Assembly (NCBI GenBank): GCA_019058315.1
Contig: JAHPZH010000002.1
Location: forward strand, 1,069,910 to 1,133,909
From: Candidatus Helarchaeota archaeon
GTDB lineage: Archaea > Asgardarchaeota > Lokiarchaeia > Helarchaeales > RDOG01
Direction of reading: 5' to 3'
Length of the DNA stretch: 64,000 bases
A model generated the notes under the pieces. The model saw nothing but the letters and a program-made list of their open reading frames with translations. It did no database searches and was not told the DNA's origin. Positions within the stretch are counted from its first letter, which is position 1. Each line of letters opens with the position of its first letter. Position numbers and translations under genes: made by a program. This document shows, in pieces, positions 2,827 through 53,623 of this stretch.

Positions 2827-3756
2827 CTAAATTTTCTCCTTTAATATCTTAATGATTTTTTCAGCCAAGATAGTACTGACCGCCTCATTAGCTTCTATAG
2901 TTTGAGCTCCTATATGTGGTGTAGCAATAACATTAGGTAATTTAATTAATTTAGGATCAGGATTGGGTTCATTAAGGAAGACATCTAAAGCAGCTCCTGC
3001 AATTTTTCCATTTTTAAGAGCTTCATAAAGCGCAACTTCATCGACTATATCCCCACGTGCCGTATTTATAAGAAATGCTTTGGGTTTCATTAAATTAAAA
3101 AATTCTTTATTTATCATCTTTCTAGTATGATCGTTAAGGGGACAACATATTGCAATAATATCAGAATTTCTAGCTATTTCCTCAAGGGGAACACAAGAAC
3201 ATCCGAGCTCTTCTGCTTCCTCAACCGCCGATTCTACAACATCACATCCTAAGACTTCCATCTCAAATGCGAGGGCTCTTTTAGCTAATTCAATCCCGAC
3301 ATTACCGCAACCAATTACACCGATAGTCTTTCCTCGTAATTCAAATCCTTTGATTTGCTTTTTTATCCATTTATTATCTTTTAAACCTTGATTACCCGCT
3401 GGAATTGACCTTAATAAAGATAAAATAAGCCCTAAAATTAACTCAGCTACTGAAACTGAAGAGCCTTTTGGTGAACGAATAACTTCTATATTATATTTCT
3501 CAGCAGTTTTTAAATCAATATTATCTAAGCCAACTCCTGCACGACCAATGACTTTTAATCGGTTCTTTCCCGCTTCAATTATTTCTTTAGTTACTTTTGT
3601 TCGTGAACGGACAATTAATGCATCATAATTTTCAATAGTTTTAATTATTTTCTCTTGAGTCATTTTTGGCTCTTGAACTAACTCAAATCCTTCAGTTTTT
3701 AGTATTTCAACTGCTTTTGGATGGATTGGGTCTGTTATGAGTATCTTATGTACTAT
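2827..3756 (-). CDS. D-2-hydroxyacid / D-3-phosphoglycerate dehydrogenase (no ACT domain); probable ATA start
   Basis: [11 protein letters not shown], GxGxxG, INTARG, TPHIGA. The frame continues upstream of ATG 3663 as (I)[19 protein letters not shown] to ATA 3756, then TAG. SD AGGTGGT at 3764-3770. Confidence 0.88.
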
Positions 3757-3884
3757 TTTCTAAACCACCTAGTTACTTCACTTAAATTATAATAAAGGAT
3801 AAAATTATTAATCTAAATGAAAATGTTTTTTTAAATCTTAATAATCGATTCAATATTTGATTATAAAAGAATTTGGTGGAAAAA

Positions 3885-4274
3885 TTGAGTAACATTCCAG
3901 ATGATTTAAAATATATTGAACAACATCAATGGGCAAAGGCTGAAGGTGATAATGTTAGAATTGGGATAACCGATTACGCCCAAGCCGAGCTTAAAGAAAT
4001 AGTTCTTGTAGATTTCATGGTTGGCGTAGGTGATACTGTTGCTAAACAAGCTGATCCATTTGGTTCTATAGAAAGTACAAAGGCGGTTTCAGATGTTTTC
4101 TCTCCTGTATCTGGCGAAGTAGTAGAAATTAATTCTGCAGTTGAGGAAGAACCCGAAATTTTAAACCAAGATCCTTATGGCAAAGGTTGGTTAATTCTAG
4201 TAAAAGCATCGAACAAATCTGAACTGGATTCTCTTTGGTCTGCTGCACAATACAAAGATTTCATTTCTAAATAA
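3885..4274 (+). CDS. gcvH: Glycine cleavage system H protein
   Basis: IGITDYAQ, lipoyl motif IESTKAVSD, DPYGKGWL. TTG 3885 follows GGTGGA (alternative start 3873). Confidence 0.93.
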   Translation: MSNIPDDLKYIEQHQWAKAEGDNVRIGITDYAQAELKEIVLVDFMVGVGDTVAKQADPFGSIESTKAVSDVFSPVSGEVVEINSAVEEEPEILNQDPYGKGWLILVKASNKSELDSLWSAAQYKDFISK

Positions 4275-4442
4275 TTAGAAATCGTTTTTTCTTTATTTTT
4301 TTCTTATTTTATTTTTAAATTATGGGTAAGATCGCTATGCTAATGTCAATATAGTAGCTATCTTTAAAAAATTTAAAAAAAAGAAGAGATTTTAGAGATT
4401 ATACACCTATTTGAAAAATATCTGTTTATTTTCTTTGCTTAA

Positions 4443-5639
4443 TCATACAATTACCTTTGTTGCTAATATAATCAATAGCGCTATTGCAAACGAGGCAATT
4501 ATATAAATGTATGGGTAGTTGTCTTTTTTAATGATCCAGAATTCACCGTTTTGTTCTTCATAACCTTGAATAGTAAAGAACAATAGTAGCGGAATAGAGT
4601 ATATAATGCATTTTAGATTATAATCTAGGTTTGATGTGCCAATACAAAGAATTTGCAATATGATTAACCAAAAAAGCGAGATCTTATTTAATTTATTTTT
4701 ATCATAATTCAAGATCCCTTGAAATGCGAATGGTAGAAATAGTACTACGGCTGCGCCCAAGGCCAAAATATAAAAGATAAACGACGAAACACTAAAAGAC
4801 TTAAAAATTACGATACTACTGTAATTTATTAATCCTGCTATTGGATGTCCAATGACTATTCCATAAATAAGTAATGCAATCGCTGGACCTGCTGCAAAAA
4901 TTACCAAATAGAGCAATTCTTTGATTAATTTATCTCTAGAGTCTGAATATAGTAGTAATAGTAGTACTCCAAATGCATATGTTATTGGAATGATGAGCCC
5001 TAAATTGAAAGTAATGACCAATAGACCTGCTAGAATTAAGTAAATATTAATTGTACTCTTTGGTTCCTCAACTGGATCAAGTATATAATTTACACTGTGT
5101 GTCGAATTAATTTGTTTTAAGAATAGAAAGAGAATCAAAGGAATTAATGTGTAATATAAATTTGCTACATTTATATGGCTTGCAAAATAGATACCTACTA
5201 AGTTAAAAGTATATAAAATGGTCGAAACTGTTATCAACTCTTCATTTCGAGTTAGTTCTTTGATAAATAGATTGAAAGTAAATATTCCGAGAGAAGATAT
5301 GATTGCCAAAAAGATACGAGCACCATAAATTCCTCCCAATGCGAAGAAAGGCGAAATTATACTAGGGAAAAGAAATGCATTCCACGGATTTGAGATAGGT
5401 AAGTCGATATATCCAAAAGCCAGGTGAATTAATAGCAATGTATTGTCTCCATTAACCACAAGATGAATCAAAGATAAGTTAAAAGGAACTGAAAATCTTG
5501 TCTGCCCAATAAGCTGTAAATATGTACCTAATTCTTCAGTAAATATGTTTTGCTCAAAAAAACATAAGACGATCCGTACACCAATAGCAATTAGCCAAAT
5601 AAACCAGATTTTTTTCTCCATAAAGAAATCAACGCTCAA
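4443..5639 (-). CDS. Polytopic membrane protein, GT-C glycosyltransferase-like
   Basis: About 10 hydrophobic segments, an acidic FTEE loop after TM1, and a PMT-like GARIF segment; family call is tentative. Confidence 0.55.
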   Translation of the reverse strand: MSVDFFMEKKIWFIWLIAIGVRIVLCFFEQNIFTEELGTYLQLIGQTRFSVPFNLSLIHLVVNGDNTLLLIHLAFGYIDLPISNPWNAFLFPSIISPFFALGGIYGARIFLAIISSLGIFTFNLFIKELTRNEELITVSTILYTFNLVGIYFASHINVANLYYTLIPLILFLFLKQINSTHSVNYILDPVEEPKSTINIYLILAGLLVITFNLGLIIPITYAFGVLLLLLYSDSRDKLIKELLYLVIFAAGPAIALLIYGIVIGHPIAGLINYSSIVIFKSFSVSSFIFYILALGAAVVLFLPFAFQGILNYDKNKLNKISLFWLIILQILCIGTSNLDYNLKCIIYSIPLLLFFTIQGYEEQNGEFWIIKKDNYPYIYIIASFAIALLIILATKVIV

Positions 5640-5738
5640 GATCTACACCATTTAGCTCTTTTTTATTTTTTATTTTCTAATTTAAAAGTTTATATTTTTT
5701 TAATATAAATGATTAACTTAGTTTTTTAAAAGTATAGG

Positions 5739-6500: not shown

Positions 6501-6512
6501 TGGTGGATTATT

Positions 6513-25404: not shown

Positions 25405-25407
25405 AAA

Positions 25408-31796: not shown

Positions 31797-31818
31797 ATCA
31801 ATATAGGATGTTATTTAT

Positions 31819-32553
31819 ATCTGTGAACTTCTAGCTTTATCTTCTAATAAAAAAAGAGAAATTGAAGAAATATATTTAGAATTTAGATCTCATTCTGACT
31901 TTCATAAAGATGGTTGGGGAATTGCATTCCATGAACCTCGAACTTTTAACATTATAAAAGAAGCCAAACCTGCTTATCAAAGTAACCTATCAGAATATAT
32001 GGCTAAATATATCAAAAGCCATTTAATTATAGCACACATTAGAAAAGCATCTCGAGGAAAGGTCACCTTAAGAAATACACATCCATTTCAACGTGAATTA
32101 TTTGGAAAATCTTGGGTTTTTGCTCATAATGGAACTGTATTTGAGAGACCTGAATTAAGAAATTTTACCTTATCACACTATTTTCCAATCGGAACAACCG
32201 ATTCTGAATTGGCTTTTTGTTATATACTTAATAAATTAAAAGATAAAGGATATGATTTAACATTTGAACAAACACTCAATTTGATAATAGATTCAATTAA
32301 TGCAATTGATGTAGGTGCCTTTGGTTTTAATTTCTTAATGTCCGATTCGCAAAATCTTTATGTATATCGAGGGAAACGTGGTCCAACTCTTCATTATATT
32401 CATTTATCGAACGAAAATTCTGATAAATTAATAATCGTATCCACTAAGAAGCTTAAAAAAATCGGTGTTAATAAGGAATGGATTCGGATGAGGCGAGGGC
32501 AATTTTTAACTATTAAAGAGGGGTTAATAATTAAAGATTTAAATTTAAGATGA
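31819..32553 (+). CDS. Class II glutamine amidotransferase (YafJ/EgtC-like); ATC start
   Basis: The upstream frame reads (I)CELLALS...HKDGWGIA before AHIRKAS, NTHPF, FAHNG and GTTDSE. The Ntn Cys follows ATC 31819; in-frame TAG at 31804. Confidence 0.88.
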   Translation: MCELLALSSNKKREIEEIYLEFRSHSDFHKDGWGIAFHEPRTFNIIKEAKPAYQSNLSEYMAKYIKSHLIIAHIRKASRGKVTLRNTHPFQRELFGKSWVFAHNGTVFERPELRNFTLSHYFPIGTTDSELAFCYILNKLKDKGYDLTFEQTLNLIIDSINAIDVGAFGFNFLMSDSQNLYVYRGKRGPTLHYIHLSNENSDKLIIVSTKKLKKIGVNKEWIRMRRGQFLTIKEGLIIKDLNLR

Positions 32554-32578
32554 GTTTTTATTAAAATGGTGGTAAATT

Positions 32579-33730: not shown

Positions 33731-33735
33731 ATCTT

Positions 33736-35283: not shown

Positions 35284-35443
35284 CAATTTTACTCCAAATT
35301 AATATACGATTGTATCAAATTCTATAAATTATTAGTTAAAATTAGAATATCGTAAAGTTGAAATTCTATTGTTAGTTTCTGATATTACTAAGATTAAAAA
35401 CTAATTATTATTTATAATGGTTAGCTAATGGACATGTCTTTGA

Positions 35444-41400: not shown

Positions 41401-42937
41401 TCTCTCATTGGAATTAGCAGAGAAAAGTATAGCAAAAGATTACTTTGCAAGATCTAGAGTGTTACTGAAGAAAGTCGCTAAAGACGAATTAATCTCCAAG
41501 AGAGAACAGGAGAGAAAAGAACTTATTGAATCAGCACGTATGGCATTAAGAGAAAGAAAAGTTCTAGAAGCTTCTAAATATTATTCGAAGATTGTATCAA
41601 TTTCTATACAATTAGGCGATCTAGAAACCGCACAGAAGTTCTCTAACTTAATGGCCTCCACCGAAGACCAACTTAAATTGTTAAAAGACCAAGAATTAAG
41701 AACAGAATTAAAAGATATTCTCCAAAAAGCTGATAAGGCAATGGGTAAACAAAAATTCGATGCAGCAGCGAAATACTTCGAAGAGGCTTCTCGTTTATTA
41801 TTACTCCTTGATGAGCCAGAAGGTGTAAGAAAGTTTTCTAGTTGGGCTAAACTTTCACGAGAACGTCAAGAATTATTTTCTGAAGAAGTAACGGATTGGA
41901 AAGCTGATTTAAATAAAATTATAGATGAAACTGAAAAAGTTGTGGAAAAGAAAAAGGAGGAAGCAGACTACGACCAAGTTATTTTAAATCTGCTTAAAAT
42001 TGCAATTTATTATTTAGAACTTGAAGATGAAAATAAATTTAGAGAATATCGTCAAATGGCCAAAAGTTATTCTGATAAGCTGAAAATATTTAGAACCGAT
42101 AGAAGGGCAGATATAGAATCAGAAAAACTTAAGATTCTGCAAAAAGCAGAGCAGGCAGAATCTAAAAATGATTTTAAAAATGCAGCGGAATTATATGAAA
42201 AAGCAGCAAAATTGGCAATTGATCTCGGAGATCGCTATGAAGGAAGGTCAATTATGGAAAAGGCACAAATACTTTTTAAACAAGCAAAGAAATGGGCTGA
42301 AAGTGAAAAAATAGAAGAATTAATGAAACCAATTAAACCTGCTCCAAAAGAAATTTCTAAGCCTCCTAAACCTAGACTTATGACTGAATTACCTAAACCT
42401 AAACCAATTAAACCCTTAATTGAAAGAATTAAACCTACAGAACTTCCTGAAATAAAAGTGATATCTGAACCAATTGAACCAGAAAAAATCATTACAAAAC
42501 CAATTGTTGAAAAACCAATTCCTAAAGTGATTCCTAAAGAACCACTACCCACAATAGAAGAACAAAAAATTAAGAATATTCGAAATCAGATAGATAAATT
42601 ACATACTCTAGTTTTTGACTGTCAAAAAAATAATAGAATTAATACAGCCATTCATTATTATAAACAAGCATCCATTTTAGCTAATCAAATCAACGATAAA
42701 CGATTGGCTGACTCTTATTTTCTTAAAATAGAGGAATTAAAAGTTTCAAAGCCTAAAAAGATTGAATCAAGGGATAGATTGCAAAAATTAATGGAATCTT
42801 CTGAGAATCATATAAGGCAGAAAAAGTTTGCTAAGGCAATTGAAGAATTAAAAGATATTGCAGAAATATTTTTCTCACAGGGTGATGAAGAAGCGGGAAT
42901 TGATTTTTTGGATAGAATTAAAGAAATTCAAGAATAA
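35444..42937 (+). CDS. Giant single-pass surface protein: glycosylated Ig-like ectodomain, TM, cytoplasmic TPR/SNAP-like repeats
   Basis: N-terminal hydrophobic anchor, about 1850 aa beta-rich region dense in NxS/T, TM at about 41134-41200, about 7 A...E....Y..AA..Y helical repeats and a Pro-rich linker. Confidence 0.85.
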   Translation: MIYMNGSVNLIKRCSFRKRAALMITLFLMITNFIIPIVIESSKNSENYVQDFINLDNFNTPKKKNPITDPNIPLKTLSNGEFTGYGNNRSVTAFFDSYGSTNGNSTNLEIDTNGWDFSAINFTIDQLTAYNHTKILEDQASFSYDVATDLYLMSFNISQDANLTKISFLLRSQADNTTIFIYSANASLAPDSVLYKINTSGFDAGLGSGTWINFTLTENNSLQLSQTNNGTFFIGINRTVSTLQWRGENDGVDGGKVFRQVGIVWEEDPGIDLTLKLKFTPLNETPNPTDVNLRINGQSVLNNFTWKNNSRLNATGSAVIFDIDSSWGNLTYRANWTANLIQNLNGITNFSANATQNIVNWNISISNLDFGAISSNKQINVSLPISWNISTVFRDSTPYGNFDNVTENNLKILRIFDPPNSSWNIGAESQNYITSIKLYKGSNEVNSSIMFEQITVNGSLKNKCFDTSNLTIILGGVEKNTTILTPNENISIDVVLNDSFGIVTNGNYTFRLTFNNGTDVGLNQTYLYVLNKTYLNDISPEAQRTIYYSGAILNITVNFTMSYWDGLNFTEQPIDNLSGGNITYNLPEITGNNWIPLNFNPTKKIWTITILLNMDIGKYTIYVNASKNGAEYQSFSRTIEIIYFNGTIKGNGDQRPIIIQGYENGTYLFGDESEIQLPVHGHNLTYANFTIFNLSSINKKILETNINFNSYNITEKTYAMKFNISAPSFITKIGFHLYINHATFTQLTNLNVYLWNASWTGSRIEPDKIIWNNINNLATIGPLNQKIFELNIPNLFLDTILTSNNSYFLTLNGTPVGLPNLSPNWLYTNDSIDGINNGEAYNFTGGSWTLLDKDFWMNVTLIEFKNASQLSLNISNIPVSDNPNLKYSGFWESSNTFLADLTGNVSLSVQANESDISYIINYTIIYENSSVDSLTKYSFNVTKNVIKWNVSFIAGLPDNAFNGSINITYPKSWNASLIYTPNKLNYTNTEILNLGNLKLLLIKNINSSYNGSWNLIFYSNKVISNIWIWNNTGGGYQQVNNAYITNTIKINATVTNAINGWGNISIFNSKDTLNNLISLTSPTQNSDYDFSDYTLMDNLTTDGNCTVLFLWSNGTEVSAELEFLYVRNVSSLVIISPESPELQGNLIEGIKGSTFNLTLYFNMSYWDSGWTSVAINDSPSTLVSYQTNSLDIANPTSGNLTFIGNGTWTKIFNVPTVNASYYLFINASGENIRASSRNFTIIVSNSSNLELIPPIQSVFWGENVTFSLNYTDQISGSPIIGANITEVNYTIFSLAQSGLFLENINYTTTSQNGIYNITIISRTLLNYTYNITFKINIIGFQTQSQTGTLFVNNRSTTLTLVLAPIPIFLGDNVSFVIFYEDTINNSGISDAIIMTNASTLLDFTLSQVAGEPGNYSINLDSSNFNNIGTFLIEFNASKNLYDIAYLNVFVQVSLFYTNLTPISGVNGTIYDWNISVMLNSSHKVQVKYLNLWDNSPVEDALIDAYLEDTLLSTSQLGNGNYSITLDASVISNPDINENYTLNVTMYKTGYETQTINITVKFVPLTTILTPIQDYINASHNDVISIDVILTNINLENIAPSFGIITYNITNSSGGYYKNGTLNYQTGYYTGSVQLLSTELANGTYDIIVNFSSNYNFYLNSSCTIALNFSVETPIIPTVIEFVNLPTIVNESSYVDIIINVTNAQKTETIPFGLVEITIIASFGDGSTQTNIINTNTSASGDANISYFVPYESISISITANYYGSSQFEQSSNSTSILVVRQKIDLTLLLLPPLFVPEGLPLFITGQIKTTNGTVLNGTIVLSISIALSISSLPILHTFSINFTPSSDGLFIFILPIPENIFSVSVSATYYGTRGYKVEASPRAVAILNELEYFIRENFFLLLIIFLIIALVIIGIVTYFKAIRPKTEPLTAKKKRLMSQRMETTKELAKITKELDKLRSDTLIQAQKAERDGLYEEAAKAYEKVGNLSLELAEKSIAKDYFARSRVLLKKVAKDELISKREQERKELIESARMALRERKVLEASKYYSKIVSISIQLGDLETAQKFSNLMASTEDQLKLLKDQELRTELKDILQKADKAMGKQKFDAAAKYFEEASRLLLLLDEPEGVRKFSSWAKLSRERQELFSEEVTDWKADLNKIIDETEKVVEKKKEEADYDQVILNLLKIAIYYLELEDENKFREYRQMAKSYSDKLKIFRTDRRADIESEKLKILQKAEQAESKNDFKNAAELYEKAAKLAIDLGDRYEGRSIMEKAQILFKQAKKWAESEKIEELMKPIKPAPKEISKPPKPRLMTELPKPKPIKPLIERIKPTELPEIKVISEPIEPEKIITKPIVEKPIPKVIPKEPLPTIEEQKIKNIRNQIDKLHTLVFDCQKNNRINTAIHYYKQASILANQINDKRLADSYFLKIEELKVSKPKKIESRDRLQKLMESSENHIRQKKFAKAIEELKDIAEIFFSQGDEEAGIDFLDRIKEIQE

Positions 42938-42944
42938 CAATATT

Positions 42945-44228
42945 TTATTTTTTAAACGTCCAATCCTTCTTAATAGTATCTTCTTTTGGTAATATTAAAG
43001 TATCATTGGGAATATCTTCCCATATATTCATATTTGGTCCTATAACACAATTTACCCCAATAATTACTCCTGGCATAAAAGTCACTCCTATTCCAGATTG
43101 GCTATTATCTCCAATAATTGCACCGAGTTTTTTTCTTCTACTATCAACCCGTTTATCTTTTATATTGGCTTTAACAGAACCTTTGGTAAATTTAAGGTTT
43201 GCAGTAATTGTTCCTGCACCTAAATTAACATTTCTTCCTATTATTGAATCACCTATGTAACTTAAATGGGGAGCTTTCGAATTACTCATCACTAAACTGG
43301 CTTTTATCTCACAAGCATTTCCTATTCTTACTCTATCTCCTAGGACAGTATTGGATCTTAGGTAACAATTGGGTCCAATATCACAATTTTTTCCTATTAA
43401 TACAGGTCCATCTATATATGTGCCGGAACGAATAATAGTACCTTCACCGATCCCAACAGGATCTTTAATAGTTACATTGTTTTCTATAGTTCCTCTGTTT
43501 TCTAAAGGCCAATTAGGAAGTAACAATTCATTTGCCTCCAACAAATCCCATGGAACTCCAATATCTTTCCATATTGAACTAATTTCAAAGTCAATAATGT
43601 CAAAATCGTCATCAATTAACATTTGAATTGAGTCGGTTATTTCATATTCATTTCGTTTTGACAATTTTGTCCTTTTAATCGCATTAAATATTTCATGGCC
43701 AAAAATATAAACTCCTGCATTGGCTAAATTAGTAGGTGCAGTTCCAGGTTCAGGTTTTTCAATAATTTTTTTAATTTTATCATTTTCTTTAGCAATTACT
43801 CCATATTTAGAGGGATCTTCCACAGGGTAAACTGATAATAAAGAATGAGGTTTCTTAGTGTTAAATTTATTTACAATCGACTTATATACATCGGGAGAAA
43901 TTAAAACATCTCCATATTGCATAAAAAAAGGTTCAGAACCTATTAACTTTTCAGCTAGACCTACTGCTTGAGCTGTACCCTTCGGATCATCTTGATTCAC
44001 AAATTCTATATTAACTCCAAACTCAGAACCATCCCCAAGATATTCTTTAATTAATTTGTCAAGATAACCAATAAGAATTATTATATCTTTGATTCCTGCG
44101 GATTTTAATCCATCGATTATGTGCTTAATCAATGGCTTGCCCACAATTGGAAGAAGATGTTTAGGTCTGGTAAATGTGAACGGTCTTAATCTTGTCCCTT
44201 TACCTGCACATAAGAGTAGAGCTTTAAT
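42945..44228 (-). CDS. glmU: Bifunctional sugar-1-phosphate nucleotidylyltransferase/acetyltransferase (archaeal GlmU-like); ATT start
   Basis: The upstream frame gives (I)KALLLCAGKGTRLRPFT..RPK.LLP; also EKP, EYEITD and hexapeptide repeats (HLSYIGDS, GAGTITAN). Confidence 0.88.
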   Translation of the reverse strand: MKALLLCAGKGTRLRPFTFTRPKHLLPIVGKPLIKHIIDGLKSAGIKDIIILIGYLDKLIKEYLGDGSEFGVNIEFVNQDDPKGTAQAVGLAEKLIGSEPFFMQYGDVLISPDVYKSIVNKFNTKKPHSLLSVYPVEDPSKYGVIAKENDKIKKIIEKPEPGTAPTNLANAGVYIFGHEIFNAIKRTKLSKRNEYEITDSIQMLIDDDFDIIDFEISSIWKDIGVPWDLLEANELLLPNWPLENRGTIENNVTIKDPVGIGEGTIIRSGTYIDGPVLIGKNCDIGPNCYLRSNTVLGDRVRIGNACEIKASLVMSNSKAPHLSYIGDSIIGRNVNLGAGTITANLKFTKGSVKANIKDKRVDSRRKKLGAIIGDNSQSGIGVTFMPGVIIGVNCVIGPNMNIWEDIPNDTLILPKEDTIKKDWTFKK

Positions 44229-44271
44229 ATTAATCGCCTTTAGTACTTTATTAATTCCTTATTAAAATAAA

Positions 44272-44895
44272 TTATAAGACAATAGAACTTAATAATCTGC
44301 GAGTTTTTAGTTCTTTATCCTCCATATTTTTTAAAGTTTCTTCTAATCTCGCCTCTAATTCGACAATATCAAGTGATAAATTTACATTTTCTGCTTTAAC
44401 CTTATCAAATTCATTGTATAATTTTTGAATAGTAACATTTCTCTTATTCATTTCATCTACTAATCTTGTACAAATTACGGGAAGAAGATCAACTTGTTTC
44501 TGTAATTCTTCGATTTTTCTTGATTGTTCTAATATTCTTTTTGATTGTTCAATTATTGTTTTTTTAAATTCGCTATGATCATTTTGAGGTTCGTAAAGTA
44601 TTTGAGAAGCTCTTTCTTCTTGAAGCCTAGCCGAATTAGCTCTAATTTGTTGAATAATTTCTCTTTGTTCTACAATTTGAATATCTTTTTCTATTACTCT
44701 TTTCTCTAATCTTTCTATTTCTCCCTTTAATGCTTGAATTGTCTCCGCCATCTGAGGAGCAATATCTTCTTTAAAGGTTATGATTTGGGCTTCTTGTGAA
44801 TCTATTTGAGTTTGTAGTTTTTCTACCATACTGTTTATTTCTGTTCTTTGTTCTTCCTCTGTCTGCATTTTCTTTTTACGCTTAAAAAATCTCAT
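44272..44895 (-). CDS. All-coiled-coil hypothetical protein
   Basis: Heptad-rich E/Q/K/L sequence; ATG 44895 follows GAGG. Confidence 0.7.
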   Translation of the reverse strand: MRFFKRKKKMQTEEEQRTEINSMVEKLQTQIDSQEAQIITFKEDIAPQMAETIQALKGEIERLEKRVIEKDIQIVEQREIIQQIRANSARLQEERASQILYEPQNDHSEFKKTIIEQSKRILEQSRKIEELQKQVDLLPVICTRLVDEMNKRNVTIQKLYNEFDKVKAENVNLSLDIVELEARLEETLKNMEDKELKTRRLLSSIVL

Positions 44896-44965
44896 TAAGA
44901 CCGTCCTCAAAAACCTAAGGACAATTGTTATTAAAATAGTTTTTTATTTATGTAAAATTTGATTT

Positions 44966-45589
44966 TTAAGAAGCCGCAGAGCTCTCTTTAGGCATTTTAA
45001 CTAATTTTATCTTCATTACTTCTGAACGACGAATTGGATATATTTTCTCGCATCGTTGGGTAATTTCTTTTGCAATATTCCCATATACTGCGTTATATGA
45101 AAATTCAGAAAAAGACAACGTAGTTGCAGCTCTCTCTATTATTTCACTCATGATATTTCGAATTTCTTTTTGTTGATTAGTTTTTGCTCGCCTCTGAGTA
45201 AGGACCATTGCTGTGACTCTTATAAAATATCCGTCTTTTGTAGTTAAATTAAAAATTCCATCAATTCTTGATGTAGTACGCCTTACCAAACTTCGAAGAT
45301 AATCTCGAGTAAAATCAGAGCCAATAAACATTGTTTTTATTGTATTTGAAGCATCTAAAAGCTCATTGAATTTAAACTTCAAAATAATATGAGTGTGGTT
45401 AAAATCACCTGTTAGATCATAAAGAGTTGCTTCAAACACTCTATCATTTAATTTTTTATTCCCCTCAAATGCTGGTGTTTTACCAATAATTTTATTTTGA
45501 AAAACTTTAGGAGCTTCTATGGTGTACCATATCTTATCTTTAAATTTATCTCCTGCTGATTTCTTTTCTTTTCGTCTCGATTTTCCCAA
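44966..45589 (-). CDS. rps3ae: 30S ribosomal protein S3Ae (eS1)
   Basis: DKFKDKIWY.I.AP, RDYLRSLVRR..SRID, KIYPIRRSEV.K; probable TTG start at 45589. Confidence 0.96.
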   Translation of the reverse strand: MGKSRRKEKKSAGDKFKDKIWYTIEAPKVFQNKIIGKTPAFEGNKKLNDRVFEATLYDLTGDFNHTHIILKFKFNELLDASNTIKTMFIGSDFTRDYLRSLVRRTTSRIDGIFNLTTKDGYFIRVTAMVLTQRRAKTNQQKEIRNIMSEIIERAATTLSFSEFSYNAVYGNIAKEITQRCEKIYPIRRSEVMKIKLVKMPKESSAAS

Positions 45590-45653
45590 TTTCTTTGCTT
45601 CCAAATATATTAAAGAAAATTTGAATTTAATAGGATGAATAGAGAGATGGTAT

Positions 45654-47102
45654 TTATAAATTTCTATTTTTATTTGAAATCTGTTTTTCAATAATAGTAT
45701 CCAATGTTTCTAAAAATTTTTCCTCAAGATTTGTAGGAATTTGTCCACCAGCGGCAATATTATGTCCTCCAGCTTCTCCTTCAATTTCTAAATTTTTAAT
45801 TGTTTCCCTTAATGCCTCACCTAAATCCAGACCCTTTTCAATGAGCTCAGGAAATCCTCTTGCCGAAATTTTACTCATGTTTTCAGCATCTTTTATATAT
45901 GCAATACCAATAAGAGGTTTATCTGATTTTATCAAATTAGAAGAGGTTACGATTGATGTTATGGTCCCTATCATTTTATCAATTATTTTATTTCCACCAT
46001 GAAAATGATATATCGCTTTTTTTTCTTTAAGAACATCCTGTTCCTGAAACCAATTAAGGTATTCAGCTATCTTTTTTCTATATTCTGTTAAACTTTTTAA
46101 TGCTTCTTTAAAACTGTCAGCATCTCCCATACATATAGAAACTCCTAAACCTCCTTTACTCATTCGTCCACATGCGTTTAAAAGTGAAGAAAATTCCCTA
46201 GCATCTCTTAATACACTCCCTTTCTCTTGATCTAAAAAATTATAAGATGTTCCTATCAAATTTAAAGCTTCTTTTCGATCTAAACCCTTTTTTAATGCAA
46301 ATTTAACAATTTCAGAGTTAAGTTTTACTTTTTCATCTTGAGATAGATCAGAAATAGTTCTCCATTTTTTATCTTCTTTAGGTTTAATCCCTGCCGCCAT
46401 TAAAAGTCTTATACAATTTTCTTCGTTCCCAGAAATCCCGGGAATAAAAGGTTCAGTTGTATATTTTAAAGAAAGATGAATAGGCCTCGATTCTTTTCCA
46501 AAAAATCGTAAATCTCTTTCAACTTTTAATATTCCAGCATTACTTCCATCTTTTATAATTAAATCATTAAGTCCCGAAAGAGAATAATATTTACCTTTGT
46601 CTTGTCGATCTCCAATTCCTCCTACAATAGCTAAATTAGCAAGATCGATATTTTGTTCATTCAATGCTTTAGCTACAAAATACACAATGCCTGCTCCACT
46701 AATTTCTGTAACACCATTAATTCCAAAAAGATGAGGATTTACATGTATAAATGGTGTTTTATTTTCATTCATTGGTTTATGATGATCAAGTATAATTACC
46801 TTAGTATCTATTAGATATTCTTTCAAATAATCAATTTGACCTGAGCCCATATCTAAGAATATATAATTTTTTCTTTTTTCATCTACTAACTCATTTATAA
46901 AAGATTTTTCTAATTGTCGTATTATTCGTAAATGAAATTTTCCCCCTTCTCTATATAATGCTTGAGATATAATTCCACCAGCTGAAAGACCGTCTGCATC
47001 TAAATGAGTCGTAATACGGATTATTTCATCATTATGGATCCAGTTGTGAATCTCATCTGCTGCTTTCTTTATATAATTAAAAAATTCTGAATACTCTTCC
47101 AA
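45654..47102 (-). CDS. DHH-family RecJ/GAN/Cdc45-like protein
   Basis: HLDADG, DMGSG, LDHH, GGIGD, NACGR, GGHNIAAG; sits between rps15 and rps3ae. Confidence 0.92.
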   Translation of the reverse strand: MEEYSEFFNYIKKAADEIHNWIHNDEIIRITTHLDADGLSAGGIISQALYREGGKFHLRIIRQLEKSFINELVDEKRKNYIFLDMGSGQIDYLKEYLIDTKVIILDHHKPMNENKTPFIHVNPHLFGINGVTEISGAGIVYFVAKALNEQNIDLANLAIVGGIGDRQDKGKYYSLSGLNDLIIKDGSNAGILKVERDLRFFGKESRPIHLSLKYTTEPFIPGISGNEENCIRLLMAAGIKPKEDKKWRTISDLSQDEKVKLNSEIVKFALKKGLDRKEALNLIGTSYNFLDQEKGSVLRDAREFSSLLNACGRMSKGGLGVSICMGDADSFKEALKSLTEYRKKIAEYLNWFQEQDVLKEKKAIYHFHGGNKIIDKMIGTITSIVTSSNLIKSDKPLIGIAYIKDAENMSKISARGFPELIEKGLDLGEALRETIKNLEIEGEAGGHNIAAGGQIPTNLEEKFLETLDTIIEKQISNKNRNL

Positions 47103-47191
47103 TCGATCACCGAAATGGAAAATAGAACTAAAAATCCTAAACTAAATATTAAATTGCTCATCCATCACGGAATAAAAATTTTTAATATAAA

Positions 47192-47647
47192 TTATCTTAT
47201 CAACATTGCCGCATCTTTATAACTATATTTCCAAGTTGGGTCTAAAACGCCCTTTCGTTTATAATATTTGGCAAGTCTCCTAACTTTGCTTTCAACTAAT
47301 GTTAATCCCCTTTTAGAACTAAGATCCTTAGGATTCTCTTCTAAATGTCTTCGAAGGTTAACTGCTTTCTTGATTAAATTTAAAATATCATCTGGTAGTG
47401 TTGGTAATAAATCTCTATCTTTTAATATCTCTGAAATTGTTTTTCCAGTTACTAATCGCGTAAAAGGAACTCCATATGAATCCCTTAAAATTATTCCAAT
47501 CATTGATTTAGATTTACCTTCCTTAGATAGACGGATTATAATATCCTCTACTTCTTCAGGAGATCTATTACACCAGTCTGGTAAAGTGGGTCTGGGGGGT
47601 CTTTTAGAACCCGATTTTCCCTTTCTCCTAGTATGCATACGTGCCAT
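47192..47647 (-). CDS. rps15: 30S ribosomal protein S15 (uS15)
   Basis: MARMHTRRKGKSGSKRP, ILRDSYGVP, RRLAKYYK. Confidence 0.98.
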   Translation of the reverse strand: MARMHTRRKGKSGSKRPPRPTLPDWCNRSPEEVEDIIIRLSKEGKSKSMIGIILRDSYGVPFTRLVTGKTISEILKDRDLLPTLPDDILNLIKKAVNLRRHLEENPKDLSSKRGLTLVESKVRRLAKYYKRKGVLDPTWKYSYKDAAMLIR

Positions 47648-47705
47648 TTTCGCAACTCACAATTTATTCATCTTATCTTTATAATGAACTTGCAATTTAT
47701 TAATT

Positions 47706-48269
47706 TTATCTACCTTTAAACCATATTCCAAATTTTTCTAAACTCTTCTTTCTATGTGAGATTTTATTTTTTTCTTCTAAGCCCATTTCTGCATAAGTTT
47801 TGTTATTTCCCTCTTTTGGTAAAAAGATTGGATCAAAACCCCAACCTCCATTATTTCCTTTTAAAATTTTGGTTGAGATTGTTCCAGAAGTTTGACCAAT
47901 AAATGTTATAATAAAATCCTCGGATTCGCAATACGCGATTACAGACTTAAAAATTGCATTTTTATTTGTTTTATCTTTAATTAATTTTAAAATTCCATCA
48001 TTTCCTATTGTCTTATAAACATAAGATGAATATGGACCTGGAAATCCACTTAAGACCTCTATAAATAATCCAGAATCTTCAACGAATACGGGTTTCTTAA
48101 TTTCTTTAAATGCATATTTCACACTAAATTTAGAAATTTCTTCCAGGTCATTTGATTGGATTTCAGGGCATTCCAACAATATAGATTCAACTTTTATTTT
48201 ATATATTGCTAAAATCTTTGTTGCTTCTTTCAATTTATTTTTATTACTTGAAGCAAAATGAATTTTCAA
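47706..48269 (-). CDS. rdgB: Non-canonical purine NTP pyrophosphatase (HAM1/RdgB)
   Basis: SSNKNKLKE, VEDSGL, FPGPYS, WGFDPIF, KNKISHR. Confidence 0.95.
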   Translation of the reverse strand: MKIHFASSNKNKLKEATKILAIYKIKVESILLECPEIQSNDLEEISKFSVKYAFKEIKKPVFVEDSGLFIEVLSGFPGPYSSYVYKTIGNDGILKLIKDKTNKNAIFKSVIAYCESEDFIITFIGQTSGTISTKILKGNNGGWGFDPIFLPKEGNNKTYAEMGLEEKNKISHRKKSLEKFGIWFKGR

Positions 48270-48856
48270 TCAGTATCACTCCCTTCTTCCCCAAAGGTTT
48301 TTTTTTCTTTTTTAAATTTTTTGTTTTCTTTTGAATCCTTAATATATTTAACTTTAATTTCTTTTCTCTCAGGTAAAACAAATATAGTCCCATCATCTGG
48401 ATACTCAAAATGTCCATCTAATAGCTCATCTGCCATAAGTAAAACAATAATATCCTCAATTTTATCTATATCGAAATTTGTTTTTTTCTCTATTGCAGAT
48501 AATGAAATTTTATTACCTTTTATTTTTGAAAGTGAGTGGATTATACTTAAAACACGCATTTTTTCATTTTCAAAGAGTGCTTCTTCAAAAATCTCGTCCT
48601 CTGTTAGATCCGGTTTAATAACCTCTTTAACTTGTTCCTTTTCTCTCTCAGAATATAAAGCTCTTATGTAAGATAAAACTGAATATATAAGAATAAGTGA
48701 AATGATTGGAATTATAGTTGTTAAAACAACCCATCTACCTTGAACATCAAAATTTAGTTGTTCCATAATTCTTATAGTTGGTGGGACAATTAGAAGAAAT
48801 ACAAATAATATCACACCAATAGTGGCTCCAATATAAATAAAATTTACCTTTTTCAT
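48266..48856 (-). CDS. Two-TM membrane protein with a PCI/winged-helix-like cytoplasmic domain
   Basis: Two hydrophobic helices; ISLSAIEKKTNFDIDKIEDIIVLLMADELLDGHF fits the PCI C-terminal pattern. Confidence 0.65.
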   Translation of the reverse strand: MKKVNFIYIGATIGVILFVFLLIVPPTIRIMEQLNFDVQGRWVVLTTIIPIISLILIYSVLSYIRALYSEREKEQVKEVIKPDLTEDEIFEEALFENEKMRVLSIIHSLSKIKGNKISLSAIEKKTNFDIDKIEDIIVLLMADELLDGHFEYPDDGTIFVLPERKEIKVKYIKDSKENKKFKKEKKTFGEEGSDTD

Positions 48857-48863
48857 CCTTTTA

Positions 48864-49490
48864 TCATTCTTTTTGTCTTATAACATATCTTCCTCTATTA
48901 AGAATTTCATCCAATCTATCTATTACCTCAGATCCTTTAGTCTCCATTTCTATTAAATATTGATTTTTAATTTGCTGAAAATAACTCTTAGCATTTTTAA
49001 AATGTGTCGATTGTAATGCTCTTCTTAATAAATGTAAATCAATTCCAAAATCTTCAATTGAATTGGAAAAATCTCCCAATCCAAAATCTATTAAAATTAT
49101 TTTACCCCTTGATAAAATCATATTTGATGTGGTTAAATCTCCATGAATAATCCCATTATTATGTAAGCGACCAACCAAATAACCAATTTTCTTACAAATC
49201 TCCATTGAATTATTTGAGTTAAGAAATAATTCTTTAATTCTTTCTCCTTCTATATATTCCATTATAATTGTCGTATTTGGAATATCCACTTGATAAATTA
49301 TGGGAGTAGAAACCCCTATTCTTCGAGCTTCTGCTAAAAGTTTCGCTTCATGAATGGTTCTATATGTTCGAATTTGTTGATCAAGTGCTTCTATACGATA
49401 GTTTTTTGGTCTTCTAAATTTTCGAATTATCTGTTTTCCATACCAGGTTTCTTTATATAGATATGCTTCGGCTCCTTTTTTTATTAACAT
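48864..49490 (-). CDS. bud32: KEOPS kinase/ATPase Bud32
   Basis: KGAEA, RTIHEA, IHGDLTTSN, IDFGL, RGRY. Confidence 0.96.
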   Translation of the reverse strand: MLIKKGAEAYLYKETWYGKQIIRKFRRPKNYRIEALDQQIRTYRTIHEAKLLAEARRIGVSTPIIYQVDIPNTTIIMEYIEGERIKELFLNSNNSMEICKKIGYLVGRLHNNGIIHGDLTTSNMILSRGKIILIDFGLGDFSNSIEDFGIDLHLLRRALQSTHFKNAKSYFQQIKNQYLIEMETKGSEVIDRLDEILNRGRYVIRQKE

Positions 49491-49506
49491 AACTTTTAAC
49501 CCACTA

Positions 49507-50493
49507 TCACTTTGTTATCCAAGGAATTTCAATTTCATCTAACCGCCATTTAGCTTTTATTTTTGTTTCTGCCAAATTTAATTTCATTCCATGTTGATAT
49601 TGTAAAATTCCAGTCCATGCAATCATTGCTCCATTATCACCCGCCAATTTTGGAGAAACGACATAAAAGTTCACATTATGTTCTTCTGAAATTGATTTTA
49701 ACATTTCCTGTAACCGTTTATTTGCAGCTACTCCCCCCGTTAATAAAATTGAATCTTTTTCGGTGTGTGCTAAAGCTCTCTCTGTTATTTCAGTTAGCAT
49801 TGAAAATGTGACCTCTTGTAGACTATAACAAAGATCATTTAAATTGGCACCTTCTGTAAATTTGTTATTAGCTGCGGTTAATAAACCAGAATAAGATAAA
49901 TCCATTCCTTTAACGACATAAGGTAATTTAATAAAATTTTTACCATTCTTAGCTAATTTCTCAACTTTAGGTCCTCCAGGATGTTGTAATCCTACATGTC
50001 TGGCGAATGTATCAAGTAAATTTCCGATTGGGATATCTAATGTCTCTCCAAATATCCTATATCTACCTTCTTCAAAGCCTGTTACCATTGAATTTCCACC
50101 AGAAACATATAATACAATTGGATCGATATGATTTCCAATCTCTTTTCTACCAATTTCAATATGGGCTAGACAATGATTTACACCAACTAAATCTTTAGAT
50201 AACAACTGGGAAAGTGATCTTGCTGCAACGGCTACAGATCTCAAACAAGGTCCCAACCCCGGTCCTTGTGAAAAGGCAATTAAATCAATATTTTTCATAC
50301 TCAAATTTGCTTTTTTTAGAGCTTCAATTAATAAAGGTTTAAAACATTTAGTGTGATGCTCAACTGCTTCTCTTGGATGTATCCCTCCAGTTTCAGGAAT
50401 ATATTGATCACTAATATTTACTAAAATTTTCTCATCTTGGATTATTCCAAAACTTAAGGTATGTGCAGTTCCTTCTATTCCTAAAGTTATCAT
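49507..50493 (-). CDS. kae1: KEOPS t6A synthase Kae1/TsaD
   Basis: GIEGTAHT, GGIHPRE, GPGLGPCL, HC.AHIE, YVSGGN, DNGAMIAW. Confidence 0.97.
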   Translation of the reverse strand: MITLGIEGTAHTLSFGIIQDEKILVNISDQYIPETGGIHPREAVEHHTKCFKPLLIEALKKANLSMKNIDLIAFSQGPGLGPCLRSVAVAARSLSQLLSKDLVGVNHCLAHIEIGRKEIGNHIDPIVLYVSGGNSMVTGFEEGRYRIFGETLDIPIGNLLDTFARHVGLQHPGGPKVEKLAKNGKNFIKLPYVVKGMDLSYSGLLTAANNKFTEGANLNDLCYSLQEVTFSMLTEITERALAHTEKDSILLTGGVAANKRLQEMLKSISEEHNVNFYVVSPKLAGDNGAMIAWTGILQYQHGMKLNLAETKIKAKWRLDEIEIPWITK

Positions 50494-50582
50494 TTATTAT
50501 CACTAAACTTAATAAAAAACTATAAACTTAAAAAATTTGAAATGGATTTTAATAAAATTTAAAACAGAAATTTAGGATTTAA

Positions 50583-50918
50583 TTAAATCAAAATTTCTTC
50601 TATTACCCAAAAATTTGTATGTGCCCCTATTTTACCTTTTTTAGCAAACATTGATGGAGCTGGCTTATTCTGATCACCAAAAATTAAGTTCTTTAATTCC
50701 CCAATTTTATTTTCTTTTTTAAGATAATCAACAAAATCTCTTAATAAATAAATATTTCTTTTGTTGGGTGCTATATCAAATCCCATAGTAGTTGTTGTGG
50801 TTATTAAACCTACAACAGAATAAATATTAGTTTTAGCATTTGGGATTCTAGAAAATTTAGCAGTTATATAACTAATTTTTAAATCCTTTGAAGGTGCTCT
50901 TTCGATTCTCATATCCAT
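50583..50918 (-). CDS. Hypothetical protein
   Basis: 111-aa ORF co-oriented in the operon; no motif recognised. Confidence 0.6.
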   Translation of the reverse strand: MDMRIERAPSKDLKISYITAKFSRIPNAKTNIYSVVGLITTTTTMGFDIAPNKRNIYLLRDFVDYLKKENKIGELKNLIFGDQNKPAPSMFAKKGKIGAHTNFWVIEEILI

Positions 50919-51031
50919 TATTTCAACTATCCTTATTAATAATTAATTTAGTCCATATCTTATTAGAAAAACATACTATAAATCAGTTAAGTTTTATAAA
51001 ATAATTTTTTAAATAATAAAATTCGATTCTC

Positions 51032-51343
51032 CTAATCGATCAAAAATCTAAGGACATTAATTATTGTGCTTATTTTCTCTATTTCGTCTGAATAATATAA
51101 TAAATTCCATAACTGTATGCTGCTAGAAATAAATACCAATACAAGATAGGGTAGAATATATCTTAATCTCATTTTTTTTTCTATATTTTCTCTTTTTTTC
51201 AGCATAATGACATAAATAACTAATATAATTGGTCCAATTAACATAAGAATAAGAGATATGAGCCTCAAAGCACTTTCTAGGGCCTCCATTTCATCTTTTA
51301 TTACTTTAAGATAAACGTATACTATTAAAACATCTATTCTCAA
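51032..51343 (-). CDS. Small membrane protein
   Basis: Two hydrophobic helices; TTG after AGGTG. Confidence 0.5.
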   Translation of the reverse strand: MRIDVLIVYVYLKVIKDEMEALESALRLISLILMLIGPIILVIYVIMLKKRENIEKKMRLRYILPYLVLVFISSSIQLWNLLYYSDEIEKISTIINVLRFLID

Positions 51344-51385
51344 TTAAATGCACCTTTCTAGTCGACATTTTTCTTTACTAATTGG

Positions 51386-52207
51386 TTATTTAGGAATAAA
51401 TTTTGGTAATTTCCAATTATAAAAATATGATAATATATAAAACATACAAATAAAAATTATAAAAAACCAACCAAAATAGATTAGATAGGGAATATCATAA
51501 GGTCCTAAAACCATTATTGGATTATTTGAATTATAACTCCAAATTGGGGAATGAGATCCAACACCATAAAATTCTATTCCCCAACCCAAGGGAGTAATAG
51601 TCAGCGCAGAAGCGGCAATTAAGATAAATTTTCCAAAACTTTTTAATTCTTTATGTTTTTTCCATTCAAAAAGAAATAAACATACTAACACGCCGTATAT
51701 CATAACAGAAAGCCAAAGAAAATATGAAAACAATGGTAAACCTATTATATCAGATATGAGCCAAGTATGGCTTGCTAATACACCATAATTATTTTGCAGC
51801 CAATTATTTATATAATATCCAACAGAAATTATTGCAAGACCCCAAGAAACAGGGAAGGTATAAATAGCACCTACCTCTATAAGCATTTTTATTTTATCTC
51901 TTCTTGTTAAAGGTAAATTGGTATTATTTACTAATTCTAAAAGACGAGTTATCGTGATAGATCCATAAAGCATGACGAAGAACCAACCAAACCATATTGG
52001 CAGTGGAAGCCCAAAAATTGGAATTAATTGTTTTATTGAATAGGAAAAAAAACCTAATTGTATAGATATTATTTCCAAAATCCATCCAATGGGTGCTGAA
52101 AGAAGAGTTGCTAAAATTATCATTCTTTTATTTCGACAAATTAAAAAAAAACCAATATCTCCAGCTACAATAGTTGTTGCAAAAATTTGAGTAATAACAT
52201 GAACCAT
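51386..52207 (-). CDS. Polytopic membrane protein, CruF/DUF422-like with internal duplication
   Basis: Repeated P.GW..E....(W/F)SY....(G/D).P...(F)GWF units. Confidence 0.55.
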   Translation of the reverse strand: MVHVITQIFATTIVAGDIGFFLICRNKRMIILATLLSAPIGWILEIISIQLGFFSYSIKQLIPIFGLPLPIWFGWFFVMLYGSITITRLLELVNNTNLPLTRRDKIKMLIEVGAIYTFPVSWGLAIISVGYYINNWLQNNYGVLASHTWLISDIIGLPLFSYFLWLSVMIYGVLVCLFLFEWKKHKELKSFGKFILIAASALTITPLGWGIEFYGVGSHSPIWSYNSNNPIMVLGPYDIPYLIYFGWFFIIFICMFYILSYFYNWKLPKFIPK

Positions 52208-52273
52208 ATTTAAACCGGAGAATGATTTTAATAATTAAAAAAAAATCTAAAATTTTTAATTAAAAAACCTAAA

Positions 52274-52543: not shown

Positions 52544-52546
52544 TAT

Positions 52547-52849
52547 TTATTCCTCTTTCTTCTTTTCTGTTTTTTCTTGATTTCTCTTAATAATATGTTT
52601 TGGTTCAACAAGTTTTGCTCGTTCTTCTGATTCATAAATTCTTACAAGTCCAATAGTTTTAGGTAATCCAAATTTGGATTTCAAAGATTTAACATAAGTA
52701 TTTTCTAATGGAACATTAAGTTGCGCGGCAATTTTTTTACGTATTTCAAATCTTGTTGGAGTACTTTTTTTATCATGTTCAATTTCGAAAGATATTTCCT
52801 TTCTTTTTAATAAAACATTTTCCTTTTCTGAAAGGATGTTGATTGCCAA
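52547..52849 (-). CDS. rps24e: 30S ribosomal protein S24e
   Basis: N.LLKRKEI, TPTR.EIR, FG......RIY, EP.HI..RN. Confidence 0.96.
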   Translation of the reverse strand: MAINILSEKENVLLKRKEISFEIEHDKKSTPTRFEIRKKIAAQLNVPLENTYVKSLKSKFGLPKTIGLVRIYESEERAKLVEPKHIIKRNQEKTEKKKEE

Positions 52850-52868
52850 TATTTATCACCAATTTCTA

Positions 52869-53402
52869 CTATATTTTATTCATTTGATCAATATAACCTT
52901 GAAATTCCTTCTTTTTTTCATCATTAACCTTAATCATAACAACTCCAGAAGGTCCTGCTATGGGAGGTTGTCCATAAAACACTAATGACCCATTCGGTGC
53001 GAGCATAACCGCAGGGAGGGCTAATAAATCTTCTTCGCCCTCTACACGAATTTCAACTAATTCTTTTAATGAATAGGCTTTTTTTAAGATTTCCCAACTA
53101 TTTTTTTCAATTAAAGCTGGGCGATTTTTTAAATGTAAGACATGTATTCCAGCTTTTCCAACCTCTTCTTTTGAGGTTCGTAAAGTTTTCCCGTCTATTA
53201 CGAAAACATTTATTTCTACTTTTGCTTTCAACAAATTTCTAGAAACAATATCTCCAACGGCAACTATTAAGGGAGGTTTCAACTCTTTTATATAATTTTT
53301 AACAATTTTGATTGTTTCTTCAGGGTCTCCTTCTATTAAAATCCCTAAGGGTTTTTTTAATACTTGTCTTAAATGCTTTGTTATTTCTAAATTATATTCC
53401 AA
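52869..53402 (-). CDS. GTP-dependent dephospho-CoA kinase (DUF359)
   Basis: LK.PLG, VGDIVS, DGKT.R, GEEDLL.LP, YGQP. Confidence 0.92.
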   Translation of the reverse strand: MEYNLEITKHLRQVLKKPLGILIEGDPEETIKIVKNYIKELKPPLIVAVGDIVSRNLLKAKVEINVFVIDGKTLRTSKEEVGKAGIHVLHLKNRPALIEKNSWEILKKAYSLKELVEIRVEGEEDLLALPAVMLAPNGSLVFYGQPPIAGPSGVVMIKVNDEKKKEFQGYIDQMNKI

Positions 53403-53424
53403 GATATTTTCACTTATAAAAAAA

Positions 53425-53610
53425 TTAACGGACTTTTAAAGCATATTTACCTGGTTCACTGACATTTAATTTACTGGCTATTAGTGAATTCGTCGGATCT
53501 ATTATGACTACCACACCAACAAAGTTTTCTGATAAATTTGAAGTCTTACATTTTGGACAATGGCTACTTTCTGTTATTCTATGACAGGTTCTACAGGCTT
53601 TTTCTTTAAT
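53425..53610 (-). CDS. spt4: Transcription elongation factor Spt4 (RpoE''); ATT start; absent from the ORF track
   Basis: Translates as (I)KEKACRTCHRITESSHCPKCKTSNLSENFVGVVVIIDPTNSLIASKLNVSEPGKYALKVR. SD GAGGTG at 53618-53623; TAA immediately precedes the ATT in frame. Confidence 0.95.
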   Translation of the reverse strand: MKEKACRTCHRITESSHCPKCKTSNLSENFVGVVVIIDPTNSLIASKLNVSEPGKYALKVR

Positions 53611-53623
53611 TTAAGAGCACCTC

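Follow-up and report, generated by a model that had tools for sequence, protein, structure and literature searches.

Near-cognate start codons as a probable genome-wide habit of a Helarchaeota archaeon, with a possible link to the initiation factor aIF1

We analyzed a 64,000-nucleotide (nt) stretch of archaeal DNA, hereafter the window, from a Candidatus Helarchaeota archaeon (contig JAHPZH010000002.1; 30% GC), in which five conserved genes lack a canonical start codon i.e., ATG, GTG or TTG, ahead of their N-terminal motifs. The window sits on contig C5 of a genome (G000) of 5.79 Mb in 12 contigs. The nearest named records to this genome are Candidatus Helarchaeota metagenome-assembled genomes, and its remoter relatives are Promethearchaeota/Lokiarchaeia. 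Scans of the window with Rfam and ARAGORN gave no matches. The five genes, and the Shine-Dalgarno (SD) element of one of them, are as follows.

2827-3756, minus strand: short-form D-3-phosphoglycerate/2-hydroxyacid dehydrogenase, 309 amino acids, proposed start ATA 3756
31819-32553, plus strand: class II (Ntn) glutamine amidotransferase, 244 amino acids, proposed start ATC 31819, just 5' of the catalytic Cys codon
32579-33730, plus strand: DUF1624/HGSNAT-like membrane acyltransferase, 383 amino acids, proposed start CTG 32579 (or ATT 32576)
42945-44228, minus strand: archaeal GlmU-like sugar-1-phosphate nucleotidylyl/acetyltransferase, 427 amino acids, proposed start ATT 44228
53425-53610, minus strand: spt4 (RNA polymerase subunit E''), 61 amino acids, proposed start ATT 53610-53608, stop codon included
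53618-53623, minus strand: SD element GAGGTG of spt4, 7 nt 5' of the ATT, overlapping the 3' end of an rpoE'-like gene (stop codon 53626-53624)

By direct reading, none of the five genes contains an in-frame ATG, GTG or TTG between the upstream stop codon and the family-defining N-terminal motif, and in all of them an in-frame stop lies 0-10 codons 5' of the proposed start. In spt4, which is present as a single copy in the genome, the in-frame TAA (53613-53611) adjoins the ATT, which is followed by codons for K-E-K-A-C-R-T-C-H...C-P-K-C of a Cys4 zinc ribbon, and the earliest canonical codon is a GTG at about 53520. The stop codon of the glmU-like gene lies at 44261-44259, ATT 44228 is followed by K-A-L-L-L-C-A-G-K-G-T-R-L-R-P, and the earliest canonical codon is GTG 44144; two more in-frame ATT codons are found at 44255 and 44234. 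The dehydrogenase gene reads TAG (3762-3760), AAA and then ATA 3756, with GGTGG (3769-3765) 8 nt 5' of the ATA and the earliest canonical codon, ATG 3663, 31 codons downstream of it. In the amidotransferase gene, TAG 31804-31806 is followed by GAT GTT ATT TAT, ATC 31819 and then codons for C-E-L-L; the earliest canonical codon is ATG 31999, and the sole alternative upstream candidate, ATT 31813, is near-cognate too. A frameshift from the out-of-frame ATG 31808 of this gene was considered and rejected, given that the frame meets a stop after eight codons and that the orthologues begin M-C or V-C. The DUF1624 gene is headed by GGTGG (32568-32572, 6 nt 5'), an in-frame TAA, ATT 32576 and CTG 32579, and its R-x-x-S-I-D-x-x-R-G motif is encoded 5' of ATG 32645.

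When the proteins were extended to the proposed starts, their Pfam or NCBIfam profile matches began at residue 1-8 and at profile position 1-2 in all five cases. Spt4 matched NF006224 over its full length (residues 1-61, profile 1-61 of 61), the GlmU-like protein matched TIGR03992 (Arch_glmU) with residues 2-400 (profile 2-391 of 393), and the amidotransferase matched GATase_4 with residues 1-238 (profile 1-254). For the dehydrogenase, residues 4-308 corresponded to positions 1-304 of TIGR01327, with 2-Hacid_dh matching from residue 5, and residues 8-227 of the DUF1624 protein corresponded to positions 1-192 of HGSNAT_cat. The dehydrogenase is a short form, its 309 residues spanning positions 1-304 of the 525-position PGDH model, and the C-terminal regulatory part is absent. 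All five open reading frames (ORFs) are full-length and free of internal stops and frameshifts, with full-length profile matches. The absence of a canonical start before an essential motif, claimed in the initial annotation of this DNA, is borne out for all five genes by direct reading and by the profile alignments.

Canonical ORF calling puts the start of all five genes too far downstream and truncates each of them. A downstream canonical codon is present in every case, so the genes might begin there, the shortened proteins being functional and the upstream codons untranslated remnants. In HdrA-like, PadR and radical SAM genes among the genome-wide candidates described below, no more than 5-8 codons separate the upstream candidate from the canonical codon, and either start is plausible. 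However, truncation would cost Spt4 three of its four zinc-ribbon Cys residues, the amidotransferase its catalytic N-terminal Cys and 60 residues, the GlmU-like protein the G-x-G-T-R-L-x-P loop, the dehydrogenase its first beta-alpha unit and the DUF1624 protein the R-x-x-S-I-D-x-x-R-G motif. Moreover, the upstream codons are still protein-like and can be aligned to orthologues or paralogues. We therefore regard initiation at the downstream codons as quite unlikely.

The genome-wide frequency of near-cognate starts i.e., ATT, ATA, ATC, CTG and ACG, was estimated from 4,166 stop-to-stop ORFs, each at least 150 codons long and none overlapping another. The 3' end of the 16S rRNA of this genome is GGATCACCTCCT. 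A GAGG peak was found 11 nt before first ATGs, and an SD 5-mer stood in register with 18-19% of first ATG or TTG codons. Among leader codons situated at least 5 codons before the first canonical start, an in-register SD 5-mer accompanied 9/75 ACG (12%), 6/79 CTG (7.6%) and 35/1,385 ATT codons (2.5%), as compared with 183/15,045 (1.2%) for all other leader codons; ACG and CTG ranked highest of all codons in this test. A mixture model combining SD length and sequence context yielded rough figures of about 120 ATT, 64 ATA, 28 CTG, 23 ACG and 23 ATC starts. In a per-ORF best-site test, 54 near-cognate sites were observed against 19 expected, which scales to about 120-190 genes. Together, these three tests point to roughly 120-260 of the 4,166 long ORFs.

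A further test made no use of SD elements. N-terminal alignment to a paralogue was possible for 1,985 ORFs, and in 80 of these (4.0%) the homology started at least 8 residues before the first canonical codon. Ten more candidates found genome-wide start at Pfam position 1-2 (DAO/FAD, DHquinase_I, Ras, NAD_binding_7, POR_N, AFOR_N, DUF2229, AAA_26, DUF2804 and GT2). In Helarchaeales relatives, the AroD ACG is replaced by ATG (four relatives), the DUF2804 CTG by ATG and the KorA ATA by GTG. On these sequence-based estimates, roughly 3-6% of the long ORFs (about 4,200) would have near-cognate starts, or about one gene in twenty-five. By the same measures, ACG is used in addition to the four codon types first proposed, and ATT predominates. 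The claim that gene callers truncate genes throughout this genome is thereby supported, both by the five window genes and by the 4.0% in the SD-free test.

The gene of aIF1, a factor with a role in initiation fidelity (PMC6237735), was inspected for changes, and was found to lack a canonical start itself. It is the single SUI1 gene of the genome and lies outside the window (C7:109723-110019, minus strand). Its zinc knuckle (I-C-P-K-C...C-M-C) is encoded ahead of the earliest canonical codon, and the candidate ATA follows AGGAG at 9 nt. This ATA is overlapped (ATATAG) by the TAG of an out-of-frame upstream ORF (uORF) of 12 codons (whole locus C7:109723-110064, minus strand); the sister genus (G001), where the aIF1 start is also ATA, does not share the uORF. 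In another Helarchaeales family the start is TTG. The Lokiarchaeia family has an almost invariant aIF1 leader with no canonical start and with ATT, or ATC in a few genomes; across about 60 Lokiarchaeia genomes the start is a conserved ATT or ATC. In total, about 62 of 80 GTDB genomes obtained by pattern search had an aIF1 gene without any canonical start, the Woesearchaeota matches having ATG. In a phylum-wide sample, two further families (f12 and f18) showed an ATA preceded by AGGAGG and a third (f7) a CTG preceded by AAGGTG, and other Asgard families start aIF1 at ATG, GTG or TTG. The aIF1 codon varies by lineage yet stays non-canonical in many of them, a pattern that selection for a weak start would be expected to leave. 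Sulfolobus solfataricus aIF1 is reported to reject AUU, and weak starts also underlie the autoregulation of IF3 and of eIF1 (PMC4705826); a comparable regulatory feedback of aIF1 may operate in this lineage.

The Lokiarchaeia aIF1 leader, AAAGGTTGTGA, also contains an in-frame TTG-TGA "start-stop" pair just 5' of the ATT start. This pair could be a degenerate SD element (AGGT..GTGAT) or a minimal uORF for reinitiation.

Similar SD frequencies were found at near-cognate and ATG starts. A match of at least 4 nt was present for 36/82 of the best near-cognate candidates from the SD-free paralogue set, compared with about 52% of well-placed ATG starts, which does not support an unusually strong SD as a requirement. 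The initial annotation had described start selection as relaxed and SD-driven; relaxation and ordinary SD guidance are supported, and an exceptionally strong SD is not. Translational coupling was rejected as a general mechanism, as near-cognate candidates are no nearer to upstream gene ends than ATG starts. Based on these two results, the simplest mechanism would be ordinary SD-positioned initiation with a tolerant codon check rather than obligatory reinitiation.

SD use is widespread in this genome, with an in-register match of at least 4 nt at about half of the well-placed ATG starts. In Lokiarchaeia relatives, the regions 5' of the same genes are AT-rich and SD-free, but aIF1 keeps its SD-like leader. 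Reviews describe archaeal initiation as using AUG, GUG and UUG and report a low prevalence of SD motifs in Prometheoarchaeum (PMC7531240, PMC12993045), a remark that fits the scarcity of SD elements in these relatives.

Distances to upstream genes also bear on a more restricted form of near-cognate use, in which such codons would serve only through termination-reinitiation coupling, a setting of naturally lower stringency, with no general relaxation. Four of the window starts follow an upstream same-strand ORF closely (spt4 ATT by 10 nt from the rpoE' stop, amidotransferase ATC by 22 nt, DUF1624 CTG by 25 nt and glmU-like ATT by 43 nt), and the aIF1 ATA overlaps the TAG of the uORF. The dehydrogenase gene, however, heads a divergent intergenic region, and across the genome an upstream gene end lay within 30 nt of 19% of the near-cognate candidates, which compares with 20% of ATG starts overall and 32% of those that have an SD. 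An explanation by coupling only is accordingly quite improbable.

The start codons of the five window genes were then compared with those of relatives. For spt4, ATT stands at the aligned position, in a leader without any canonical codon, in four genomes: G003, G005 and G006, each from a different genus of one other family in this order, and G021, from a different family. Other genomes have ATG or TTG, and the spt4 orthologues start on or within a few codons of the ATT. The glmU-like gene has ATG on exactly the ATT codon in 28 of 29 relatives (M-K-A-V). Only two amidotransferase orthologues were found among the 40 relatives searched, reading ATG-TGT (G002) and GTG-TGT (G038), as against ATC-TGT here. 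For the dehydrogenase, nearly all relatives have an ATG (one a GTG) two codons past the ATA, where this genome has CAT, and begin M-K-(I/V)-L-I-S-D. The DUF1624 gene had no orthologue among the 40 relatives searched, and its paralogues within the genome carry TTG or ATG leaders. In summary, spt4 alone has a conserved odd codon, and the other four are confined to this genome, with ATG, GTG or TTG in relatives or paralogues. Judged from these alignments, the four are one- or two-base derivatives of canonical starts. As they are genome-specific, the pattern looks like tolerated start-codon drift rather than five conserved regulatory devices.

The restriction of four odd codons to this genome, and the existence of paralogues of the glmU-like and dehydrogenase genes within it, would also be compatible with young pseudogenes, in which the start was lost as the gene decayed or became redundant. 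The initial annotation had named this contrary picture, of relatives with ATG and of copies decaying here. Its first half was largely found, the relatives having mostly ATG or GTG, and its second half was not, as the ORFs are intact and full-length. The five ORFs match their profiles end to end, and spt4 and aIF1, both core genes present in one copy, have near-cognate starts that are conserved. In addition, decay does not predict the loss of 3-6% of starts in otherwise intact genes together with SD enrichment at exactly those codons. We consider pseudogenes a very improbable explanation.

An independent view of the sequence was provided by the Logan assembly of the probable source run, which showed 0 differences from the window over 31700-51699, on one contig at a depth of about 18; this identical 20 kb includes three of the five start sites. 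Contigs of three further sediment metagenomes, about 97% identical, span parts of the stretch. Sequencing or assembly errors at initiator codons are a next to negligible explanation for this metagenome-derived genome, despite its 12 contigs and some runs of N, since the Logan sequence is identical, the same spt4 and aIF1 codons appear again in genomes assembled independently, and an error rate hitting about 4% of start codons would ruin the ORFs. The earlier judgment that such errors are unlikely holds as far as it could be followed here, through the Logan identity at three sites and the recurrence of the spt4 ATT.

Heavy use of TTG, which had also been claimed for this DNA, is confirmed. TTG is the first canonical codon in about 23 main ORFs of the window. 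In eight of the named genes a domain begins 2-28 residues past the TTG (Rpp14/Pop5, FGGY kinase, DHH/RecJ-like, Ham1, S24e, S27a, S6e and Spt5-NGN), the distance being 2-10 residues in seven and 28 in the DHH/RecJ-like protein. Two of these genes are given here.

52547-52849, minus strand: rps24e, TTG start; Ribosomal_S24e matches residues 5-98 (profile 2-95)
59363-60001, minus strand: spt5 (NGN-KOW), TTG start; Spt5-NGN matches from residue 8

According to the mixture model, the first canonical codons that resemble true starts comprise about 2,037 ATG, 801 TTG and 131 GTG, so TTG makes up about 27% of canonical starts genome-wide. Two other ORFs of the window are of note. Positions 35444-42937 (plus strand) hold a single ORF of 2,497 amino acids whose first canonical codon is TTG. 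At 22939 (minus strand), a possible ATA start behind GTGAT precedes by seven codons the GTG of a P-loop (KaiC/RecA-like) ORF at 21503-22918 (minus strand), for which a canonical GTG or ATG start is as plausible as the ATA.

The explanation that we favor, and consider likely, is that the five genes are intact and functional and that near-cognate starts are a genome-wide habit, with a stringency that is probably tied to aIF1. We infer from the sequence that the near-cognate codons are used and that Met is the first residue. The SD element would guide the small subunit in the normal way, and the ordinary initiator Met-tRNA would read ATT, ATT, ATA, ATC and CTG in spt4, glmU-like, dehydrogenase, amidotransferase and DUF1624, respectively. 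Low initiation stringency would let AT-biased mutation erode start codons without gene loss. By rejecting non-AUG codons, aIF1 would probably fix the set-point of stringency, and its weak start may let it hold down its own production, in the manner of bacterial IF3 with its AUU start. As the odd codons are mostly one-base derivatives of the ATG or GTG found at the same position in relatives, low stringency that tolerates AT-biased erosion is the simplest reading.

Several observations weigh against this explanation. Relatives do not share the near-cognate codon of the glmU-like, dehydrogenase and amidotransferase genes but have ATG or GTG, and each non-conserved case, taken singly, could be a recent start-loss mutation. 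The initial annotation had assigned an SD-like element at normal spacing to each of the five genes; this is the case for spt4, the dehydrogenase and DUF1624, but the motifs of the glmU-like gene (GGCGAT, 4 nt 5' of ATT 44228) and of the amidotransferase gene (AGGATG) are weak. The control codons AAA and TTA were also inflated in the mixture model, probably by adjoining true starts. The genome-wide tests covered this one Asgard genome. Finally, no clear initiator tRNA was found in the genome with ARAGORN (with or without introns), the Rfam tRNA family or anticodon-arm patterns.

The ARAGORN and Rfam searches recovered only 27-40 tRNA genes. Outside the window, C5:113,868-114,000 (plus strand) carries a GGGCTCATAA anticodon arm and, after about 30 nt, ACCC...GGTTCGAATCC. 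This element near C5:113,900 is a possible intron-containing initiator tRNA and was reported neither by ARAGORN nor by the Rfam tRNA model. A second locus outside the window, C3:627,500-631,800 (minus strand), packs about 20 tRNA genes into less than 5 kb, several of them with introns and an encoded CCA. It represents about half of all tRNA matches in the genome, includes a tRNA-Met(CAT) with an initiator-like GGG/CCC anticodon stem and may be a mobile or viral tRNA island.

Similar arrangements are known from bacteria. In E. coli, the IF3 gene infC is under translational autocontrol (Butler et al. 1987, as cited in PMC4705826). E. coli infC and pcnB resemble the genes described here in having an AUU-class codon behind an SD as the sole start of an intact conserved gene, and infC further resembles aIF1 in that the gene of a fidelity factor itself bears such a codon. 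The differences are that a handful of genes is concerned in E. coli as opposed to a few percent here, that the aIF1 fold is unrelated to that of IF3, and that feedback is proven for infC and only suggested by sequence for aIF1. In Deinococcus, N-terminal proteomics identified non-canonical starts of dnaA (ATC), rpsL (CTG), infC and one more gene (PMC2830850). As here, ATC and CTG starts occur on conserved housekeeping genes across a lineage and are misplaced by gene callers; the Deinococcus cases are four bacterial genes with peptide evidence, whereas about 100-250 genes are predicted from sequence in this archaeon.

Among Asgard archaea, a "rare ATT start codon" has been proposed for the tubulin AtubA of Kariarchaeaceae (PMC13394414), the only published Asgard near-cognate start found in our literature search. 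The deposited AtubA protein lacks the first beta-strand, which is restored by an upstream ATT at a good distance from a ribosome-binding site, much as in the window genes. AtubA was, however, treated as a single odd gene, outside any genome-wide or aIF1 context. In eukaryotes, eIF1 is autoregulated through an AUG in poor context, and initiation at CUG, ACG and GUG is tuned by eIF1 and eIF5 levels (PMC4705826, PMC3326321). The likeness lies in the homologous SUI1-fold policing of start codons, in a weak own start that would raise synthesis when stringency drops, and in CUG and ACG being among the codons used. Eukaryotes, by contrast, rely on scanning and Kozak context, whereas the starts here are positioned by an SD element and it is the codon that is weak. 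Mitochondria and Mollicutes resemble this genome in using AUU, AUA and AUC as regular initiators in AT-rich genomes; mitochondria differ in requiring a modified tRNA-Met, the standard code otherwise applying here. Such AUN initiation is recorded in NCBI tables 2, 4 and 5, and NCBI table 11 formally includes ATT, ATC, ATA and CTG as initiators.

For annotation, the consequence would be that an estimated 100-250 proteins of this genome are truncated or missed by callers restricted to ATG, GTG and TTG, often with loss of catalytic or metal-binding N-termini. Such truncation distorts Asgard protein catalogues, structure predictions and surveys of eukaryotic signature proteins, and one published tubulin needed hand repair for the same reason (PMC13394414). 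More tentatively, many Asgard archaea may run at a lower stringency set-point that is controlled by aIF1 through its own conserved near-cognate start, a proposal that we regard as possible and somewhat short of probable. If true, the IF3/eIF1 type of feedback loop would have been invented independently a third time, several percent of the genes would form a set whose output follows the aIF1 level up and down, and self-limiting stringency control by the SUI1 family would be older than eukaryotes. A lineage near the eukaryotic ancestor that would routinely start genes at AUU, AUA, AUC, CUG and ACG, and that keeps a SUI1-family proofreading factor behind such a codon, provides a connection that can be tested between IF3 autocontrol in bacteria and eIF1 autocontrol in eukaryotes.

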